This document shows positions 7,264 through 63,541 of a stretch of 64,000 nucleotides of DNA, in pieces (the stretch's first letter is position 1; the number at the start of each line of letters is the position of its first letter). The position numbers were made by a program, and so were the translations under genes. The stretch comes from a virus (taxonomy: Duplodnaviria; Caudoviricetes): the IMG/VR virus record IMGVR_UViG_3300034073_003276, one strand, 5' to 3'. The notes beneath the pieces are model-generated. The model searched no databases and was not told where the DNA came from. It saw nothing but the letters and a program-made list of their open reading frames with translations.

Positions 7264-8006
7264 TATGATATGCGTCTTCTATTATTTTTAGATGTATCTA
7301 TTCCTTTTCCTTTTTGATAAGAAACTACTCCAGCAGAAGTTGATACATAACCAGTCATACAACATTCCCATCTTTGTGAATTGGTAATTTTTACATTTTC
7401 TCTTCTTTCTTCGGTTGCCAGTCCATAAAGACCTACACGAAGTTCTTTTGCTCTTTGTGTTGCTTTTTTACCATCTTCACTCATTTGTTCTTTAGTTCTT
7501 CCGTGAACTCCAACACCAAGTTTATATGCGGTTAGTCCTCCATTTTTTGCATCTTCACTCATTTGTTCTTTAGTTCTTCCATGAATGCCCAATCCAAGTT
7601 CGTATGCTTTTTTTCCTCCACTTTTCCCATCTTTGGTCATTTGTTCTTTAGTCCTTGCGTGTCCTCCTATTCCAAGTTCATATGCTTTTCTTCCACCCTT
7701 TGAGCACAAATCAATAAAAACTTTACCACCAACATTTTCATTAAGACACCACTTATCGGTGTTATAAAATGGTTTTATTAATCTCTTTTCAACTTCCTGT
7801 GCTTCTATCCAACCTTCATCTGTGAAGTCAAAAAATTGAAGTATTTGCTTTTTAGGAGTATAAAATTTCCACATCCACTTATGGGTTACAGGAGTTCCCA
7901 TATAGTATTCATTAAACTTTTTTTCTTTATGAGCACCATAATAGTAATAAGAAACTTCTTCAAAGGTAATCTTATACAAGTATATTCTTGGACTTTGTGA
8001 AGTCAT
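7263..8006 (-). CDS. free-standing GIY-YIG-family homing endonuclease with C-terminal repeats
   Basis: N-terminal IYLYKIT...YYYYG motif (GIY-YIG-like); three (H)GRTKEQM(S/T)(E/K)DGK repeats. Confidence 0.65.
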   Translation of the reverse strand: MTSQSPRIYLYKITFEEVSYYYYGAHKEKKFNEYYMGTPVTHKWMWKFYTPKKQILQFFDFTDEGWIEAQEVEKRLIKPFYNTDKWCLNENVGGKVFIDLCSKGGRKAYELGIGGHARTKEQMTKDGKSGGKKAYELGLGIHGRTKEQMSEDAKNGGLTAYKLGVGVHGRTKEQMSEDGKKATQRAKELRVGLYGLATEERRENVKITNSQRWECCMTGYVSTSAGVVSYQKGKGIDTSKNNRRRIS

Positions 8007-17610: not shown

Positions 17611-19863
17611 TTAGAATAAGTTTAATGTGGTAGACCCAACTCCGAGAACTGTAAAAACTATTCTATCTGGAGATGATAAAACTTCAATTTGTACAGATGG
17701 ATTTGATGAATCGGAACTATTAAATGACGCACTCACAGTTGTAGCGGTTATCACTCCAGAATTTATTGCAATCAAATCATCAACATAAATTTTATTCGTC
17801 GCTATTGAATTTTTAACTGTTAATCCAATTATATCATCACCATAACTTTCAGGTACCGTAGTTCCAACACCAACTATAGTACCTAAACCAACAAAAGTTG
17901 CACCATTAAAGTCTACATTGTTATTAACATTTAGTGAAACTAATGTAGTGATTCCAGACGTGGTGTATAAATTAGATCCAGAAATTACATCTGGATAATC
18001 AATGTTTCCACTGATATTACCATCGACTGTTAAATTAGAATTAATATAAACATTTCCCGTAACTGTTACGCCACCACCGACAGATAATTTTTGCGATGGT
18101 GTAATATCATTAATTCCAAGATTTCCATCATAAGTCAGAGTCATTGTCTCTGAGTTTGTCTGTCCATAAACCCACTTAAAGTTACCAGTGCTTCCTGCAC
18201 CAGTTCCTCCATGAATAATAGTCTTAATATCACCAACATCATTATTGATAATATCTAATACGCCATCAGAATTCCCGAATCTCAATACAGAACTACTGTT
18301 ACCAACGCCTACAGATTGACCAATACTAATTCTTGCCTGCCCACTATCAGAAACAACCTCTACAAGAGAACCAGATGCTTTTCTTACTTGAATATCTGAT
18401 GTTGGATTTGTGGTTCCTACGCCAATATTACCAGAAATATAAGTATTTCCAATTACATCAAGTTTATTATTTGGTAATGTGCTACCAATTCCGACTTTGC
18501 GATCATTATTACCACCTTGAATTATTACATTGGAAAAACCAGAAAGGATATTGAGTGGTTTAGACCAAGAAATTATATAATTCCCATTTAATACAGGTTC
18601 ATAAGAAAATATAAAACCACTAAAAAACCCATTTCCTTCTGTTGAATTAGATATTTGAAAAGAAGAATTATAAAGACACAAACTATGCCCACTTGTATCA
18701 GTGGTTCCTATTCCAACACTGCCGTCTGCATTAACAACAAAAGGAGTTGCATCGGGATTAGTGGAATCTTCAACAACCAAAGCATTACCAGAACCAGTTT
18801 GAGTGATTCTTAATGCATCGGAAGTGCTGTTGACCGATATTGTTGATACTCCAGAGACATTCAGAGTTCCATTGACATCAAGTTTTGCTGTTGGAATTGT
18901 GGATCCAATACCAGTATTACCAGAAATATAAGTATTCCCAATTACATCAAGTTTTGCTGTTGGATTTGCGGTTCCAATACCAATATCAATATTGGATGAA
19001 GTTGCTAAAAGTGAACTAGTAATTGCTACTACCCTTCTTTCACTTGGAGCAATAAAGAAAGATCTTCCAGAAATTGATTGTGAATCATCAAGATCAACTG
19101 AAGAGGAATTAAAAGGAAAATAGTGTAAGAGTCCTTTTACAGAATTTTCTGCCTCAAAAAATTTTCCTTGAAATGCTATTGTTGGTTGGGTATATCCATC
19201 AATTGTAATTCCTTGTCTTAAAGAACTATCAGGACCACTTACTACTAAACTAGTGTAAAACAAAGAATATCTTGAACCACCAGGATTTGTGGTTCCTATT
19301 CCAATTCTTCCGTCCCTATTTACAACAAAAGGACTCGAATCTGGGTTAGTAGAATCTTCAACAATTATAGCATTACCAGTTCCAGTTTGAGTGATTCTTA
19401 ATGCATCAGAAGTGCTGTTGACCGATATTGTTGATACACCAGAGACATTTAGAGTTCCATTGACATCAAGTGCCGCTCTTGGAATTGTGGTTCCTATTCC
19501 AACATTAGATGTTGTTGAAATAAACCCTGAGTCTACATACCATCCATCTACTGCAATAGCGTAAATTCCAGTTAATCCAGAAGCACTTCCTGAGAATGAT
19601 GTTGCTGTAACTATACCAGAAACATTAATATCTGATGCAGTAAGAAATCCTACTGTAGAAATACCAGTAGTTACAGAATTTACTGTATATAAATTATTTG
19701 CTGTAACTAATCCTGTAACTCTTGTATCACCATAGACATTCAAAATATAATCTCTAGGAATAGTCGTACCAATTCCAACCAAACCATTTGAGTTTACAAT
19801 GAAATTATCATTATCAACTTGTACACCATTCCTAAAGTTAAAAGACTTATTAAAATTTGCCAT
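17611..19863 (-). CDS. tail fibre protein
   Basis: multiple (V/I)GIGTT.P repeats, internal duplication, beta-rich composition. Confidence 0.75.
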   Translation of the reverse strand: MANFNKSFNFRNGVQVDNDNFIVNSNGLVGIGTTIPRDYILNVYGDTRVTGLVTANNLYTVNSVTTGISTVGFLTASDINVSGIVTATSFSGSASGLTGIYAIAVDGWYVDSGFISTTSNVGIGTTIPRAALDVNGTLNVSGVSTISVNSTSDALRITQTGTGNAIIVEDSTNPDSSPFVVNRDGRIGIGTTNPGGSRYSLFYTSLVVSGPDSSLRQGITIDGYTQPTIAFQGKFFEAENSVKGLLHYFPFNSSSVDLDDSQSISGRSFFIAPSERRVVAITSSLLATSSNIDIGIGTANPTAKLDVIGNTYISGNTGIGSTIPTAKLDVNGTLNVSGVSTISVNSTSDALRITQTGSGNALVVEDSTNPDATPFVVNADGSVGIGTTDTSGHSLCLYNSSFQISNSTEGNGFFSGFIFSYEPVLNGNYIISWSKPLNILSGFSNVIIQGGNNDRKVGIGSTLPNNKLDVIGNTYISGNIGVGTTNPTSDIQVRKASGSLVEVVSDSGQARISIGQSVGVGNSSSVLRFGNSDGVLDIINNDVGDIKTIIHGGTGAGSTGNFKWVYGQTNSETMTLTYDGNLGINDITPSQKLSVGGGVTVTGNVYINSNLTVDGNISGNIDYPDVISGSNLYTTSGITTLVSLNVNNNVDFNGATFVGLGTIVGVGTTVPESYGDDIIGLTVKNSIATNKIYVDDLIAINSGVITATTVSASFNSSDSSNPSVQIEVLSSPDRIVFTVLGVGSTTLNLF
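18794..19470. repeat. near-identical direct repeat of about 90 bp within the fibre gene (~18794-18881 and ~19382-19470)
   Basis: both encode LDVNGTLNVSGVSTISVNSTSDALRITQTG. Confidence 0.85.
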
Positions 19864-25727: not shown

Positions 25728-25801
25728 TACCCGCAGTCGGATTCGAACCGACACTGGAGGAGTTTTAAGCTCCCTATCTCTGCCTGTTGGATTATGCGGG
25801 C
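25728..25801 (-). tRNA. trnL: tRNA-Leu(TAA)
   Basis: acceptor GCCCGCA/TGCGGGT, anticodon arm GGGAG-CT TAA AA-CTCCT, T-arm GTCGG TTCGAAT CCGAC; short variable loop; no encoded CCA. Confidence 0.85.
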
Positions 25802-25805
25802 AAGG

Positions 25806-25879
25806 TGCAGGTTGTGGGGATCGAACCCACCTTAGGCGAATTATGAGTTCGCTGCTTTCAACCAGAGAGCTAAACCTGC
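25806..25879 (-). tRNA. tRNA with CAT anticodon (elongator Met or Ile2)
   Basis: acceptor GCAGGTT/AACCTGC, GCGAA-CT CAT AA-TTCGC, GTGGG TTCGATC CCCAC; G1-C72 pair argues against fMet. Confidence 0.85.
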
Positions 25880-40172: not shown

Positions 40173-40864
40173 TGACTTACTTCAGAGAACTACCCAACTT
40201 AGAATATCAGTCATTCCTATCAGATTCTAATTCATCTGATCAGTATTTGATTGTCAAGAATCTTTTCCGTAGAGTCAAACTGCGTGATGACTTACAAAAT
40301 GTTTTTACTGTCTTTGACAAATATCAAATTCCAGATGGGTCTAGACCAGAATTAGTTGCTCAAGAACTTTATGGTAGCACTCAATATGATTGGGTAGTCA
40401 TCGTATCTGCAGGAATCACAAGACTCAGAGACCAATGGCCACTTTCCGATAAGCAAGTTTATGATTATGCAGAGTCAATTTATGGAAATAATTTGAATGC
40501 GATTCATCATTACGAAACTACAGAAGTCAGAGACTCAGAAGATAGATTAATTCTTCCTGCTGGTCAAGTTGTAGATGCAGACTTTAAGGTTTCTTACTAT
40601 GATGATGGCACTCTTTATACAAATGATGCAACAAGATTAGGAGATGATGTGATTCGTATTCCAGATCCTATAGTAGGAGTGAGTAATTATGAGTATGAAG
40701 TGAGAAAGAATAATGATAAGAGAGGTATCTATGTATTAAAACCAAGATACCTACAGCAAGTTATTAATGACACAAGAAAAGCGATGATTTATGATAGGTC
40801 ATCGCAGTATGTAAATGATACTCTAATTAAAACTGAGAATACTAAATCAACTATTCCATTTTAA
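40172..40864 (+). CDS. gp53: baseplate wedge protein gp53
   Basis: YF..LP...Y; G.RPE.VA..LYG...YDWVV; IHHYET. Confidence 0.9.
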   Translation: MTYFRELPNLEYQSFLSDSNSSDQYLIVKNLFRRVKLRDDLQNVFTVFDKYQIPDGSRPELVAQELYGSTQYDWVVIVSAGITRLRDQWPLSDKQVYDYAESIYGNNLNAIHHYETTEVRDSEDRLILPAGQVVDADFKVSYYDDGTLYTNDATRLGDDVIRIPDPIVGVSNYEYEVRKNNDKRGIYVLKPRYLQQVINDTRKAMIYDRSSQYVNDTLIKTENTKSTIPF

Positions 40865-41440
40865 TTCTAGATTCTTATCAAAAACTATCACATAACGGTG
40901 CTTGCGGGAGCGTTCTTTCCATTCTCCCTCAGCACCTTTTACTTTTCCACGAGAGTGCTTAGTTCCGTCTGAATAGTAGAAATCTTTTTTTGGATCTGTG
41001 AGACCCATATACTTAAAGTTACAAGCGCGATAGATTGTGCCAGAATGAAAATCACTATCAGCGTAAGAGATAATTGCCTTAACTTCAGTATCTTTTCGTA
41101 ACTGTCTAATCGCTTTTGAAACAAACCAAGAAGTGATATTATACTCGCTCTGTTGAGTTTGTGGATGAATGCAGAGTCGTGAAAGTTCGAATAATCCTTG
41201 TTGTTCATTTCTCTCTAATCCAAAGGCACCTTTTGCGATTTCAGGAACAGGAAGTCCAGTGAAAATACAGACCCCAACAGGACCTCCAATATTTAACACA
41301 TCTGTAAAAGATTTTTTATATAAAGAATAATTATATCCACTTTTGAAATCTTTTGATATGTCTTTTAGATAATGGTAATTATACAATAATTCTTTTATTT
41401 CTGATTTGGGAACCCTTTGAATATAATAATCACTTTTCAT
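40847..41440 (-). CDS. Mom-like DNA modification protein (GNAT fold)
   Basis: ELSRLC, ISYAD...H.GTIY.A.NF.Y.G motifs of the Mu Mom family; start trimmed to MKSDYY. Confidence 0.7.
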   Translation of the reverse strand: MKSDYYIQRVPKSEIKELLYNYHYLKDISKDFKSGYNYSLYKKSFTDVLNIGGPVGVCIFTGLPVPEIAKGAFGLERNEQQGLFELSRLCIHPQTQQSEYNITSWFVSKAIRQLRKDTEVKAIISYADSDFHSGTIYRACNFKYMGLTDPKKDFYYSDGTKHSRGKVKGAEGEWKERSRKHRYVIVFDKNLELKWNS

Positions 41441-42101
41441 AAAAAACACTATACTTGTAAATATAATATTTTGATCTACCAGTCATTTTTACAGCATCTT
41501 TTATGCAATCATATACTACGCCATTATAGCATAGTTTTCTCGCTCTTGGATTTTTACCTCCCATTATATCTGAATTTTGAATACCCTTATTCCAAGGTTT
41601 TCTTCCCTTACAAGAATCACTTATTTTTTTCCTAACTTCTGGTCTTTTAGTTGGATTTTTATCTCCAACTAATTTTCCTCTTGCTCTTAAACCTTTTTCT
41701 ATATCTGACTGTCTTCTTTTTTCAGTAATAGTCTTTGGAGTTCCTCTATTTGCTTCTGCAATTTTTCTTTTATGAGATTCTGATAAAGGTTTTCCAAGTC
41801 TTGCTTTTCTTCTATTTTCAATATCCTTTTCAGTCATTATTTTTCCAGAACATCCATCCCCACCATTAGTTTTATTATGAAGAATTCCAGTTCCTAGATC
41901 TTTTCTGCCAAACACAGCAATCATATAGATTTCGTGATTAAATGCTTGTTCCTCTGTAAGATTTCTTTTTAAAAATAAAATTCTTTCCTTTGATGGTGGA
42001 TAAAAACTTCCGTGTTTTAAAAATGCTCTTCTACCCTTTCCCTTACCAATATAATAGGGTGTCCCATCTTCACGCAAATATGCGTAAGTATAATAGTCCA
42101 T
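41430..42101 (-). CDS. GIY-YIG homing endonuclease with NUMOD3-like repeats
   Basis: YYTYAYLREDGTPYYIGKG; HNKTNGGDG; LSESHKRKI. Confidence 0.85.
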   Translation of the reverse strand: MDYYTYAYLREDGTPYYIGKGKGRRAFLKHGSFYPPSKERILFLKRNLTEEQAFNHEIYMIAVFGRKDLGTGILHNKTNGGDGCSGKIMTEKDIENRRKARLGKPLSESHKRKIAEANRGTPKTITEKRRQSDIEKGLRARGKLVGDKNPTKRPEVRKKISDSCKGRKPWNKGIQNSDIMGGKNPRARKLCYNGVVYDCIKDAVKMTGRSKYYIYKYSVFYEK

Positions 42102-42102
42102 C

Positions 42103-42200
42103 TGCTTCTAAATTAAGGTCGCAATAGTATTTATAATAAAATAGGGTGGATTTCTCCACCCTTCTCTAAAAGTGCGACCTTGTTAGAGCATTAGTATTTA
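42103..42200 (-). promoter_or_regulatory. homing-endonuclease control module (third instance)
   Basis: TAAATA 42200-42195; arm 42181-42173; GAAA hairpin 42162-42143; TATAAATA 42135-42128; complementary arm 42123-42115. Confidence 0.75.
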
Positions 42201-42204
42201 GACA

Positions 42205-43137
42205 TCAATCATCAGATGCTAATTTTGCGAAATACGAAAGCGCATCATCGTCCTCATCTTCTTCTGCCGCAGGAGCAGCAGCGCGGCGAGTTGGTTTCAG
42301 ATTGCTGATTTCCTCACGAAGGTCATCAGTCAACTCACGGGAAGACCCACGAGTATATTCTTCCTCTTCACCTTCTTCGACATCAAGACGCACATTTGCT
42401 TTCGATCCAAGCACAGAATGAAGACGTGCTTTCAGTTCTTCATAAGTCTTGAATTGATCGGGAGAAACAAATTCAGCAAGAGAATACTGCTTCTTCCAGA
42501 TTGCTTCCAGAGCATCATCATCATCCAGCAAAGCACTCTGAGGAGCAAACTCACTGGAATCATAGTTACGATAACCAGCAACATTCTTTGCCTTCAGTTT
42601 GAAGTTGGCGCCTTGCCAGAAGTCAAACGGATCGATTGCTTCTTCATCTTCAAACTCAGGTTGCATTGCAGCAGTCAGTTTGTCAAAGATCTTCTTACCA
42701 TACTTGAAGAGGAAGACTTTACCTTCATTTTCAGGATTGGCAGGATCTTTTACCACATAGATGTTGGAAACATAAGTCAGTTTGCGCTTCTGCTTACGTG
42801 CAACCTCTTTACCAGCATCAGTGCCGTTATTCCAGAGACCAGAGTTGTGCTCACATACAGGGCACTTTTGATTCATAGTCGTCAGGCAGGTGTCAATCAA
42901 CCAACCACCAGGACCTTGGAATGCGTGACTATAAACCTTCACAAAAGGAATGTCTTCACCATCAGGGGCAGGCAGAAAACGGATTACGGCATATCCATTA
43001 CCGCTTTTATCTACGTCCATTTTCCACAGACGATCATCGGAAGGACTTCCAATAGTATTCATTTTTTCTACTTCTTTCACCAGTTTTGCGGTGAGAGAAC
43101 CAAGTTTAGATTGTTTTTTAAGGTCGGAAAAACCCAT
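42205..43137 (-). CDS. gp32: single-stranded DNA-binding protein gp32
   Basis: D.RLWK..VDKSGNGYAVIRFLP; HAFQGPGGW; CPVC; acidic tail LSYFAKLA. Confidence 0.95.
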   Translation of the reverse strand: MGFSDLKKQSKLGSLTAKLVKEVEKMNTIGSPSDDRLWKMDVDKSGNGYAVIRFLPAPDGEDIPFVKVYSHAFQGPGGWLIDTCLTTMNQKCPVCEHNSGLWNNGTDAGKEVARKQKRKLTYVSNIYVVKDPANPENEGKVFLFKYGKKIFDKLTAAMQPEFEDEEAIDPFDFWQGANFKLKAKNVAGYRNYDSSEFAPQSALLDDDDALEAIWKKQYSLAEFVSPDQFKTYEELKARLHSVLGSKANVRLDVEEGEEEEYTRGSSRELTDDLREEISNLKPTRRAAAPAAEEDEDDDALSYFAKLASDD

Positions 43138-46085: not shown

Positions 46086-46796
46086 TTATACCACATACTT
46101 CCAAACATATCCTTTATGTTTTTTCCTTTTATTTTGACAAACTAAAGTTATTTTGGAAGTTGAGGCGTTATTTTTTTCTGCGGCAATGGTCATACTATCA
46201 TAAACTTCAATTAAATTTCCATTAGTATCATATTTTCCTATTTTTTTAATTTTATGAGAGGTTCTTTTATATGAAGATATTTTTGATAGTGGTTGATTTT
46301 CAAAAGTTTTCCATTGAAACCCACCACAAGTTTGATATTCTCCTCTTATCACGGCACCAATGCCTTTACAATCTTTACCAAAAACATCATAAGAAGCATC
46401 TCTACAACTTTCATAAACATTGACTAGATTTCCATCCAAATCATAACAAGCAACTTTTTTAGAATTGCTTTGTTTAATTGCTTGTTTCCATCTATCCCCG
46501 TGCTTTTTATTGAGAAATCCACCACCGTCGCCTCCATTAGTCATATTATAATATGGTTTCAAAAGAGAGACATAATACATTTCTCTTTCATTTACTTTAT
46601 TTTCAAAACACTCTTCTATAATTTCAAATACAAAATTTTCAACACCATACTTTCTCATAGCATAATATAATTTTGTATTTCTTACTTTTGAATGAGATTT
46701 ATGCTGTCTCCATCTTACTTTTGGTCTTTTGGATTTACCAATATAAATCTGCTCATTAAGAATATTTGTTATTTTGTAAATGTAGTGTGAAACCAT
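46086..46796 (-). CDS. GIY-YIG homing endonuclease with NUMOD1-like domains
   Basis: YIYKITN...YIGKS; YNMTNGGDG; two YD..GNL..VY.S repeats; TATAAATA at 46828-46821. Confidence 0.85.
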   Translation of the reverse strand: MVSHYIYKITNILNEQIYIGKSKRPKVRWRQHKSHSKVRNTKLYYAMRKYGVENFVFEIIEECFENKVNEREMYYVSLLKPYYNMTNGGDGGGFLNKKHGDRWKQAIKQSNSKKVACYDLDGNLVNVYESCRDASYDVFGKDCKGIGAVIRGEYQTCGGFQWKTFENQPLSKISSYKRTSHKIKKIGKYDTNGNLIEVYDSMTIAAEKNNASTSKITLVCQNKRKKHKGYVWKYVV

Positions 46797-46832
46797 AATA
46801 CGATAGTTTTACTCTACCAATATTTATATAAA

Positions 46833-51035: not shown

Positions 51036-52286
51036 TTAAGTATCAAAAAAGAACATCTGCCAAAGTCTGCCACTATTTTTATTACAACCAAAATATTCTG
51101 AAGCAGAATGAATGCAACTTCCATCAAATATTATGAGACGATTAAAAACATTTCCCATAACATCTACAGGTTCGAATGGAGTTTTGTCTAAATGTGTTGT
51201 GGTTTCATTTATAACTCCAGAAAAAGCATCGTCATAAGAGACTTCATAATAATCTCTACCTCTTGTTTTTTTATGTGCAAACAATGTTGTTCCACATTCA
51301 AAAGGAGCATCAGGTGTTAAGTATAGCACAGCACCCCATTTTTGACTATCCCAATGATAAACTAAGGGTTCTCCTGCCCAAGCAATTTGAAATTTACCAT
51401 TTTCACTATGTTCTTCCCATGCCGTAATTTTTCTTCCCATAATTTCTTCAAATTTTTCTTTTAATCCTGGAAACAAAAATTGTTGATATGTTCTCCTACC
51501 AATAAACCCCCTCCCTATTCCACCCTCAAAATAATCCTGTTGAAGAGCAAAATCACGAACAAAATAAGGATCATTATAAAAATTATCTACAGTCCATACT
51601 CTTAACTTTTGATTTAGACTTATAGAAAAATTTTCAACTCTAACTCTTTTAAAAAGAATAGAGGCATCAACATTTTTTACCATTTCGAATCCATAAGATT
51701 CGATTAATTTTATTGATTTTTTAGTATCTTCTGACCAATCTACATCATCAATAAAACAATAACCATTTAAAACTACCTTACTAGCATATTTGTTTATGTC
51801 TTTAAGAACTTGCACTGTGTGTTGACCATCAATATGGATAACACTTAAATTTTCTATTGCTGGAGCATCATCACTAGTAGATCTTATCAACTTTGTATAC
51901 TCATAAACACTTAGATCTTCTATCGCATTGCAACAGACATTTAACATATTTTCCAAATCAACCGTTCCCCAAAATTGTTGGTGACTTGGATGATCATATC
52001 CAGTTAAAGCATCTTGAGTATTCCATGGATCAATTCCATAGACAGTTCCCCTAGATAAAAATTTCAGTGTGAGAGAGAATGGAATTAAACTCTTTCCGCC
52101 AAAAACTCCAACTTCAAGACAATTTAACTCTTCCTGTTCTTCAGATAATTCAAGAATACATTTAATAATTTCTTGTGCCTTTTCTAAAGAACACCATCCC
52201 CAGAGATTATATTTTTGGTCATATTCCTGATAAATTTTTTCGACTTGTTTTAAAATTTCTTCAGAATAATTTTTATCTTCTCCCAT
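51036..52286 (-). CDS. class I SAM methyltransferase fused to a 2OG-Fe(II)-oxygenase-like domain
   Basis: LEVGVFGGKS, IHIDGQH; C-terminal VDNFYNDP..VR, H.D, NVFNRL.IFDG..HSA. Confidence 0.75.
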   Translation of the reverse strand: MGEDKNYSEEILKQVEKIYQEYDQKYNLWGWCSLEKAQEIIKCILELSEEQEELNCLEVGVFGGKSLIPFSLTLKFLSRGTVYGIDPWNTQDALTGYDHPSHQQFWGTVDLENMLNVCCNAIEDLSVYEYTKLIRSTSDDAPAIENLSVIHIDGQHTVQVLKDINKYASKVVLNGYCFIDDVDWSEDTKKSIKLIESYGFEMVKNVDASILFKRVRVENFSISLNQKLRVWTVDNFYNDPYFVRDFALQQDYFEGGIGRGFIGRRTYQQFLFPGLKEKFEEIMGRKITAWEEHSENGKFQIAWAGEPLVYHWDSQKWGAVLYLTPDAPFECGTTLFAHKKTRGRDYYEVSYDDAFSGVINETTTHLDKTPFEPVDVMGNVFNRLIIFDGSCIHSASEYFGCNKNSGRLWQMFFFDT

Positions 52287-62310: not shown

Positions 62311-63086
62311 ATATTATAACTATCTCCTTCCATTCCTTTGATTGTTGTAAGTCCTAGATTTGGAATACTAATCACATTCCTTTTATTTAAGAACCGATAA
62401 AGAGAATGTTCAACATCAGTACCTGCCGTATATTGAATCATTTTTTCCATATAAACAAATGCTTTCTCAAGTGTCTCAACAATCTCATTAAAAAGCATAC
62501 GGTCAAAAGACCATAATCCAGTTACCATCATACCCTTTGCACCATAAAGATAAGCATAGACATTCTCAAGTTCTTTACCATCAAAATTCTCTGCTTCTTG
62601 TGGAAGATAGTCATACTTTTTGATTATATATCGTTCCTCAAGAAACTTTGATTCATAATCTTTAATATCAAAATACTCATTCAACAAATATCTTCCAGTC
62701 AATTTGAATACTCTTTGACTATCACTGAATAGATTATGTTTTTTAATTACATAAAGAGCATTCAATAATCCTCTGGTTTCTAATAATGACTTAACATAAG
62801 TAATCAGTTCTGGTCTTGATTCTAGATTTTCGTAGATTTGTTTGATTACTGGTTCATTATAAAATTCCAAAAACAAATCTGCTTTTTCTTTGATTACATC
62901 TTTTTGCCTTTCGTCAATTGGTTTAGAAGAACACTCAAATAAAACGACATAAGAGTTTGGTACTTTTTCTCTTATACATTCAATCGTTTTTAATGTTTGC
63001 TCAAATCTTTGCTCCTCATCATAAGCACTAAACTTTTCTTCTTGAAAGTGTTTAAGTGCTGAACCAACCAAAAATAAAAATTTCAT
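62307..63086 (-). CDS. glycan-related hypothetical protein
   Basis: RFEQT..TI..IR, FKLTGRY.L, DVEH motifs seen in GT-like ORFs. Confidence 0.55.
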   Translation of the reverse strand: MKFLFLVGSALKHFQEEKFSAYDEEQRFEQTLKTIECIREKVPNSYVVLFECSSKPIDERQKDVIKEKADLFLEFYNEPVIKQIYENLESRPELITYVKSLLETRGLLNALYVIKKHNLFSDSQRVFKLTGRYLLNEYFDIKDYESKFLEERYIIKKYDYLPQEAENFDGKELENVYAYLYGAKGMMVTGLWSFDRMLFNEIVETLEKAFVYMEKMIQYTAGTDVEHSLYRFLNKRNVISIPNLGLTTIKGMEGDSYNI

Positions 63087-63541
63087 AAGTAATCTGTATT
63101 AAAACTAATAATAATTCTTTCTTCTGTTTCTTCTTCAGTATAGTGAACCAAATCACTTGAGAAAATGATTAATAATCCTGGATAAGGACTGATTGAAGTA
63201 TCTGGAAATATTAAAGGAGTCTTTCCAGAAATATAAAATGCTCCACTTACAATACTTTCTTCGTGCTTATGTGCCTTAAGTTTATTTCCTGGTTTTGAAA
63301 TATTAAACCAACTATTGATAAATTTGAGTGGTGAAATCTCATACTTATTACAATATATTCTAACATATTGTTTAAGAATATTTCTCAATCCAGTCAGTTC
63401 TGGATACAATAGAGTAGGCATTCCGTAATTATAAGTGGAAACACCATTGGTTACAAGACCGTGAGAACTAGTTTCTATTTGAAAAAGTTTGCTCTTAATA
63501 GTATTTAGATTGAGAAAAGAAAGGTTATACTCCTCTATCAT
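63083..63541 (-). CDS. 2OG-Fe(II) oxygenase
   Basis: SWFN......H.H, SGAFY, F.S.L.H, RI.ISFN. Confidence 0.8.
   Translation of the reverse strand: MIEEYNLSFLNLNTIKSKLFQIETSSHGLVTNGVSTYNYGMPTLLYPELTGLRNILKQYVRIYCNKYEISPLKFINSWFNISKPGNKLKAHKHEESIVSGAFYISGKTPLIFPDTSISPYPGLLIIFSSDLVHYTEEETEERIIISFNTDYL

Follow-up and report, generated by a model that had tools for sequence, protein, structure and literature searches.

As selfish genes, homing endonucleases must do no harm to the phage that carries them. To our knowledge, the restraint of their expression has been worked out for a few T-even cases only. A hairpin masking the ribosome-binding site, combined with a late promoter, is known for I-TevI, I-TevII, I-TevIII and segB of T4 and for mobE of the Aeromonas phage Aeh1 (reviewed by Edgell, Gibb and Belfort, PMC2988022). 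Terminators and further layers also restrain these homing endonuclease genes (HEGs) (PMC2988022). For the 'fractured genes' of the aquatic/ocean metagenome, Dassa et al. (2009) described hairpins in 15 of 16 5' UTRs of free-standing endonucleases; TATAAATA was present in ten of these hairpins (PMC2677866). The same study reported two conserved, mutually complementary motifs and found that the endonuclease 3' end overlaps the downstream gene (PMC2677866). The PeSLs of T4-like phages are portable cassettes as well; they join a terminator to an early promoter and have been linked to modular exchange (PMC2839356, PMC4122927).

The leader described here precedes a free-standing HEG located after gp32 in a cyanophage. 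The stretch of DNA analysed, 64 kb in length and called the window below, is part of an 89-kb viral contig (G000). Its source phage is a T4-like cyanomyovirus, the gp32 region matching the Synechococcus myoviruses S-SRM01 and S-SKS1 at ~78-80%. The endonuclease was recognized by NUMOD3 in Pfam (E 6e-8) and by PHROG 314, 'homing endonuclease' (E 6e-14), and gave a faint GIY-YIG match against solved structures (E 0.5). The gp32 context, the cyanomyovirus relatives, NUMOD3 and PHROG 314 together place it in the HEG setting of T4-like phages.

Anatomy and predicted folding of the leader

gp32 is the upstream, co-directional neighbour of the module and its transcripts run into it; the spacer between gp32 and the endonuclease gene measures 103 nt on the minus strand. 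The features of the locus, from upstream to downstream, are as follows.

42205-43137, minus strand: gene of the ssDNA-binding protein gp32, a 310-aa open reading frame whose DNA matches annotated Synechococcus myovirus gp32/ssDNA-binding genes at 72-80%
42195-42202, minus strand: P1, upstream late-promoter-like box TCTAAATA with its core TAAATA at 42200-42195, 4 nt before the 5' arm
42173-42190, minus strand: 5' arm (anti-leader), 18 nt, TGCTCTAAC-AAGGTCGCA, with a cognate duplex of -22.0 kcal/mol
42163-42168, minus strand: A' segment TTAGAG, predicted to pair locally with CTCTAA of the 5' arm
42136-42162, minus strand: intrinsic-terminator-like hairpin AGGGTGGA-GAAA-TCCACCCT (42162-42143) with a tail rich in U (42142-42136), the whole lying within the loop of the outer stem
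42128-42135, minus strand: P2, box TATAAATA of the T4 late promoter type, placed 26 nt upstream of the ATG and 4 nt upstream of the 3' arm
42103-42123, minus strand: 3' arm, 21 nt, TGCGACCTT (42123-42115)-AAT-TTAGAAGCA (42111-42103), the leader of the HEG mRNA, which holds a purine-rich SD-like tract
41430-42101, minus strand: free-standing HEG, 223 aa, with a GIY-YIG-like N-terminus (YTYAYL...PYYIGKG) and a NUMOD3 DNA-binding motif

Read 5' to 3' on the minus strand, the order is P1, CTAA, 5' arm, CTTT-TAGAGA, hairpin, ATTTTAT, P2, CTAT, 3' arm, a single G and the ATG at 42101. Direct reading of the sequence found all motifs listed in the first-pass annotation (TAAATA at 42200-42195, arms, hairpin, late box and ATG) at the minus-strand positions given there. 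The one error concerns the gap between the arms, which had been put at 59 nt, 10 nt too many: a repeat search returned the inner arms as a perfect 9-bp pair with 49 nt between the arms, and also recovered the 8-bp hairpin. The pairing does extend nearly to the start codon, as had been noted, the 3' arm ending 1 nt short of the ATG. The outer part of the 5' arm, TGCTCTAAC (42190-42182), pairs with the purine-rich tract before the ATG, and the inner part, AAGGTCGCA (42181-42173), pairs with the first bases past P2. The SD-like tract itself is weak (AGAAG).

With 8 pairs, 5 of them G-C, a 4-nt GAAA loop and the tail ATTTTATTAT, the nested hairpin corresponds to the simple definition of an intrinsic terminator and is predicted to act as one; its U-run is interrupted (AUUUUAUUAU). 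P2 sits between the two arms at 42135-42128, and late transcripts begun at a start site that we infer from this box are predicted to lack the 5' arm. A sigma-70-like site was absent from 42100-42205, where the boxes are of the late type. No Rfam family matched the module: the whole window gave two tRNAs only, and the best score within 41900-42400 was at most 16 bits. The two tRNA genes are adjacent, at 25728-25879 on the minus strand (Rfam tRNA, 50 and 53 bits).

The first-pass annotation had counted three instances of this arrangement. The other two were indeed found before the ATGs at 8006 (minus strand) and 35989 (plus strand), with the parts in the same order. Their spacing also agrees as proposed, with 67, 70 and 70 nt from P1 to P2 and 26, 28 and 26 nt from P2 to the ATG in the three copies of the window.

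A 131-nt stretch folded into the nested structure at -38.7 kcal/mol, compared with -20.6 ± 3.3 kcal/mol for shuffled sequences (z = -5.4); none of 200 shuffles was as stable. The predicted stable helix includes the ribosome-binding tract and start region of the HEG, as expected of a T4-type mask. Freeing the positions -20 to +5 would cost 14.0 kcal/mol in gp32 read-through RNA and 16.6 kcal/mol in RNA begun after P1. In T4, late transcripts begin a few bases downstream of the TATAAATA box, and in RNA begun 4-7 nt after P2 the cost dropped to 4.8-6.6 kcal/mol.

A fold scan centred on start codons covered the 115 nt upstream of each open reading frame of at least 70 aa on the contig, 152 in all. 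It was used instead of a long-window RNAduplex scan around every ATAAATA box, which proved too noisy (controls reached -41 kcal/mol). Four leaders combined long-range pairing over -22 to +3 with a minimum free energy below -37 kcal/mol, and all four belong to HEGs carrying TATAAATA: the three instances of the window and an HNH-type gene outside it.

Covariation, strand specificity and association with nuclease genes

Homologues of the three window nucleases in IMG/VR yielded 80 non-redundant upstream regions. A TAAATA box stood 20-30 nt before the ATG in 73 of them; the remaining seven had no such box, and the module is therefore absent there. A strong stem bracketed the late box in 71 of the 80 leaders, and in 64 of these 71 it enclosed a nested G+C hairpin with a T-tail. 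P2 read TATAAATA in 66 of 69 modules.

The 68 full modules contained 45 distinct 3' arm sequences. Cognate arms paired at -22.9 ± 1.5 kcal/mol as against -9.2 ± 3.8 kcal/mol for non-cognate combinations, and the cognate arm beat every non-cognate one in 60 of the 68 modules. A MAFFT alignment of 27 diverse modules (A1) misregistered the arms; pair counts were instead taken from an alignment of one subfamily (A2), alongside the cognate and non-cognate energies computed per sequence. Within A2, 99% of the cells pair and 6 of the 15 pairs of the outer stem show changes on both sides. The covariation score of this subfamily was reached by none of 500 shuffles, whereas slid controls paired at only 37-56%. 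For the present copy, the relative L009 carries a compensatory change from G-C to A-U at the outer end of the stem. The 58 distinct arm pairs include 47 G·U pairs and not a single A·C mismatch, which puts the constraint on the coding-strand RNA and not on the DNA or the opposite strand. Selection on structure, which had been suggested from three copies, is thus borne out by arms that covary and by G·U pairs confined to the sense orientation.

A second leader architecture was seen ~110 nt before the endonuclease ATG in ten IMG/VR sequences (L015, L022, L023, L025 and L028-L033). Here the 5' arm lies within a larger conserved hairpin, GTGGGC...GTAAGnCCCAC, followed in several cases by a T-run, and then by the late box and a 3' arm reaching to the ATG. 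In some copies, the upstream position of TAAATA is taken by a TATAAT-like box. This architecture had no match in Rfam.

Blastn with the 104-nt module against the GenBank phage collection gave no matches. As blastn is ill-suited to so short and variable a module, we used a covariance model. The model (R1) was built from 12 modules of one subfamily (alignment A2), the three copies of the window being excluded from training. Searched against both strands of the 64-kb window, it returned only three matches, at the ATGs 8006 (E 2e-14), 35989 (E 2e-9) and 42101 (E 2e-5). On the 89-kb contig it returned six sense-strand matches, each directly before a HEG-type gene. The complete genome of S-SRM01 (240,842 bp) gave another six at E <= 5e-6, again all directly before HEG-type genes. 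All 12 matches, with E <= 2.5e-5 throughout, thus lie immediately upstream of a HEG. The enrichment that the first-pass annotation had put up for checking with such a model was found in all six cases on the contig and in all six in S-SRM01.

The three contig modules beyond the window are all full ones. They lie at 80009-80118 before a GIY-YIG/NUMOD3 gene (320 aa), at 84437-84546 before an HNH-type gene (266 aa) and at 87173-87280 before a GIY-like/NUMOD3 gene (245 aa). In S-SRM01, the six modules are located at record positions 17953, 48433, 51247, 55959, 62406 and 192421, and the genes following them encode two HNH-type proteins, three NUMOD3 proteins (one with six repeats) and a homologue of the 8006 protein. 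A seventh match in that genome was weak and partial (E 0.5) and consisted of a plain terminator and TATAAATA, the arms being absent. No match to R1 was obtained in S-SKS1.

The module predicts a HEG in 12 of 12 cases, but the converse does not always hold. The GIY-YIG gene read from 46796 to 46086 has only a TATAAATA box after the thyX stop codon, with no arms, terminator or R1 match. The co-occurrence with GIY-YIG genes expected by the first-pass annotation therefore stands in so far as the module precedes such genes; it does not stand as an exclusive link, since HNH-type genes are preceded as well and one GIY-YIG gene of the window has no module. This fourth HEG of the window (46086-46828, minus strand) is a classical one (Pfam GIY-YIG, NUMOD1 and I-HmuI NUMOD-like) located directly after thyX, a neighbourhood that recalls I-TevI in td of T4.

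Two annotations of S-SRM01 are also touched by these matches. The coding sequence at 62515-63273 of MW015081.1, which bears the annotation 'translation initiation factor 2', contains NUMOD3 in six copies and matches GIY-YIG faintly; these features and the module in front of it identify it as a homing endonuclease. The NUMOD3 coding sequence at 51291-51992 was probably called too far upstream, as the module puts its ATG near 51346.

Cassette boundary and proposed mechanism

In S-SRM01 and S-SKS1, gp32 directly adjoins the convergent baseplate genes. The site is empty in these phages, and the HEG together with the gene that follows it therefore constitutes an insertion in the present phage. Similarity to the relatives L009, L014 and L020 begins at 42200/42201, where the P1 core starts, and the cassette is 88% identical to L009 as compared with 72% for the adjacent gp32. 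Judged by these alignments, P1 is the left edge of a mobile cassette.

The gene following the HEG, at 40847-41449 on the minus strand, is a Mom-like DNA-modification gene (Pfam Mom, E 1e-21; PHROG 1384) that overlaps the final 20 nt of the HEG (41430-41449). The two genes share one insertion between gp32 and the convergent baseplate genes. The Mom-like gene is not found at the corresponding site in S-SRM01 and S-SKS1, and L009 has no DNA similarity to it.

Further observations concern the integrity of the cassette. In the IMG/VR relatives L006-L008 and L010-L012, the endonuclease match ends near residue 171-184 and the DNA similarity to the window breaks at 41584; their leader is nevertheless fully intact. 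The module can outlive the C-terminal part of its gene. A comparison with RNA libraries took in 4 of 16 matching runs (15 recorded as RNA, all with small shares) in the form of assembled contigs, in which no transcript starts or ends were seen. One of these contigs diverges exactly beyond 42200, a weak hint of the cassette boundary. In one contig of run X5, P2 and the leader (42101-42135 of the window) adjoin another terminator hairpin, one of the 8006 type; this single low-depth contig points to an exchange of parts between modules at the conserved box.

The anatomy of the leader, its stability, covariation and strand specificity, the fact that it accompanies nuclease genes exclusively, and the boundary of the cassette are best explained by a control in cis that permits late expression only, and we consider this explanation highly probable. 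We infer promoter activity, termination, transcript start sites and the effect on translation from the arrangement of the elements. RNA reading through from gp32, or begun at P1, would meet the intrinsic terminator, and the cassette would be insulated from gp32 transcription. RNA passing the terminator would contain both arms, and its 5' arm would pair with the leader up to position -2. This pairing would bury the ribosome-binding tract, so that the nuclease would not be translated from RNA extended at its 5' end. P2 lies in the loop of the stem, and RNA begun there would open with the first bases of the 3' arm; without the 5' arm it should be translatable. With the upstream RNA masked and the P2 RNA free, the nuclease would be made only late and only from its own promoter. 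The entire leader, from P1 to the ATG, moves with the nuclease gene between loci and phages. The weak SD-like tract, the interrupted U-run and the lack of the module at one GIY-YIG gene of the window and at 7 of 80 homologues sit less easily with this explanation. If the terminator is efficient, a mask in cis would rarely be needed, and the two devices look redundant. Furthermore, a model acting in cis only assigns no role to the nearly invariant P1 box.

This box may hint at an extension of the cis model. In 68 of 69 modules the 5' arm has a TAAATA core in front of it, mostly at a distance of 3-5 nt, against a background of 0.001 per position in the module loci, and this layout mirrors that of P2, four spacer bases and arm. 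Among the close relatives of the present copy P1 is invariant while the next four bases vary. On this contig, NATAAATA and CTAAATA boxes are 12-15x enriched in the 50 nt upstream of genes, which is not the case for other xxTAAATA variants, and CTAAATA-type boxes (TCTAAATA, ACTAAATA) stand before baseplate genes. The variant of P1 found here thus appears to be used by the phage as a late promoter, although TCTAAATA deviates from TATAAATA. RNA from P1 to the U-run would be ~55 nt long and is predicted to fold into two hairpins in 68 of 68 modules, a 5' hairpin exposing the inner arm in its loop and then the terminator; a duplex formed in trans would have -21.4 kcal/mol in this copy. It is possible, if on balance doubtful, that HEG cassettes of T4-like cyanophages encode such a terminator-capped RNA on the same strand from a late promoter of their own, active at P1. 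Its loop would be complementary to the 5' end of the cassette mRNA begun at P2, and by pairing in trans it would act as a brake on nuclease synthesis even late, each cassette having its own address. In a single genome holding six modules, arms of different modules fail to pair with one another (cognate -20.6 to -33.4, non-cognate -1.8 to -15.8 kcal/mol), as orthogonal addresses would require. Moreover, 11 of 60 modules have no co-directional upstream gene, about 5 of them lying in divergent gaps, and all of these keep intact, covarying arms; in the present copy, on the other hand, gp32 read-through already provides the 5' arm in cis. The covariation of the local 5' hairpin (5' arm with A') speaks against such an RNA, as it is weak: cognate pairs reach -6.4 kcal/mol compared with -4.2 kcal/mol for non-cognate ones, 19% of which are equally good, there is no variation within subfamily A2, and discrimination across families is only modest. 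A repressor and its target made from two simultaneously active late promoters would also be an odd design. We found no cyanophage transcriptome report of small RNAs beside endonuclease genes. The antisense element in the name chosen by the first-pass annotation would correspond to this putative RNA, for which a conserved promoter-like box and a predicted fold speak; the well-founded part of that reading is the T4-type mask in cis with its nested late promoter.

The same box could serve without any functional RNA if polymerases started at P1 and halted at the terminator occluded P2 and lowered its firing. The terminator tail ATTTTAT does abut the TATAAATA of P2, and this tight layout recurs across modules. 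Such an interference, however, would need no complementarity between 5' arm and leader, yet this complementarity covaries, and it would leave the predicted 5' hairpin unexplained; we consider it unlikely. Less probable still, to the point of being hardly tenable, are readings in which the pairing of the RNA has no function. In one of them, the arms would be an inverted repeat acting at the DNA level, as a cruciform or as a recognition site for recombination or for a nuclease. The mobility of the cassette would fit this, as would, weakly, the RNA-library contig in which P2 and leader are joined to another terminator; for composite terminator-promoter motifs of the PeSL type, a part in the shuffling of T4-like phages has been proposed (PMC4122927). 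However, neither DNA nor the opposite strand would tolerate the asymmetry between 47 G·U pairs and a complete lack of A·C mismatches, and the model scored the sense strand far above the antisense strand (123.6 versus 34 bits, at one site). Nor does such a repeat account for the 3' arm always terminating at the start codon. This last point also tells against the other reading, which sees here the terminator of gp32, an ordinary late promoter behind it and complementarity arising by chance. Chance is further opposed by the z-score of -5.4 and 45 covarying arm pairs, and the cassette-free relatives S-SRM01 and S-SKS1 have no terminator after gp32.

Comparison with known systems

With late expression under a mask in cis as the preferred explanation, restraint in these cyanophages is packed into one portable leader of ~100 bases, which combines a mask with a stop signal and a late promoter of its own. 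The leader moves with unrelated nuclease families, and its pairing has been kept through dozens of arm replacements. The modules may represent a natural, ready-made set of orthogonal translational locks. They are also a reliable marker for finding HEGs in phage annotation and for correcting their starts, the 'translation initiation factor 2' of S-SRM01 being an example.

In IS10, the stem-loop RNA-OUT limits transposase synthesis: its loop pairs with the 5' end of the RNA-IN mRNA, and the ribosome site is covered by this pairing. RNA-OUT and its target come from opposite strands, the two being transcribed across each other. The logic would be the same here if the predicted small RNA exists, but the complement belongs to an inverted repeat and lies upstream of its target on one and the same strand. 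Membership in the IS10-type antisense family was rejected on these grounds, and the module at most works like that family. If a small RNA is indeed produced from the outer box, lytic phages would have a new form of same-strand antisense control.

PeSLs share with the module a portable terminator and promoter. They have, however, early promoters of the sigma-70 type, no arms masking a start codon and no tie to nuclease genes. We rejected a membership of the module in this class, as its boxes are of the late type and 42100-42205 holds no sigma-70-like site.

The hairpins of Dassa et al. probably belong to the same module family as the one described here. The 3' overlap with the downstream gene is common to their loci and to the present HEG (41430-41449) (PMC2677866). 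Their paper mentions neither a terminator nor a second box upstream, and it is without tests of covariation, strand asymmetry or whole-genome specificity (PMC2677866). Their loci lie in split genes, whereas the present locus is intergenic, after gp32.

Closest in function are the masks of T4 and Aeh1. In both systems, the stem covers the ribosome site and start of a HEG in a T4-like phage, forms only on RNA begun upstream and has TATAAATA nested within it (PMC2988022). The module described here differs in its loop of ~49 nt, which holds a complete intrinsic-terminator-like hairpin, in a second late-type box at fixed spacing before the 5' arm, and in a 5' arm that is predicted to be able to form a hairpin of its own. 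It also serves several nuclease families with one design (GIY-YIG/NUMOD3, a GIY-like repeat protein and HNH) and marks the edge of the cassette. Given the T4 mask (PMC2988022) and the metagenomic hairpins (PMC2677866), the core mechanism is already known. What the cyanophage module adds to it, and what as far as we found is apparently undescribed, is a terminator nested in the loop, an outer box at fixed spacing, the boundary of the cassette and the breadth of the covariation.
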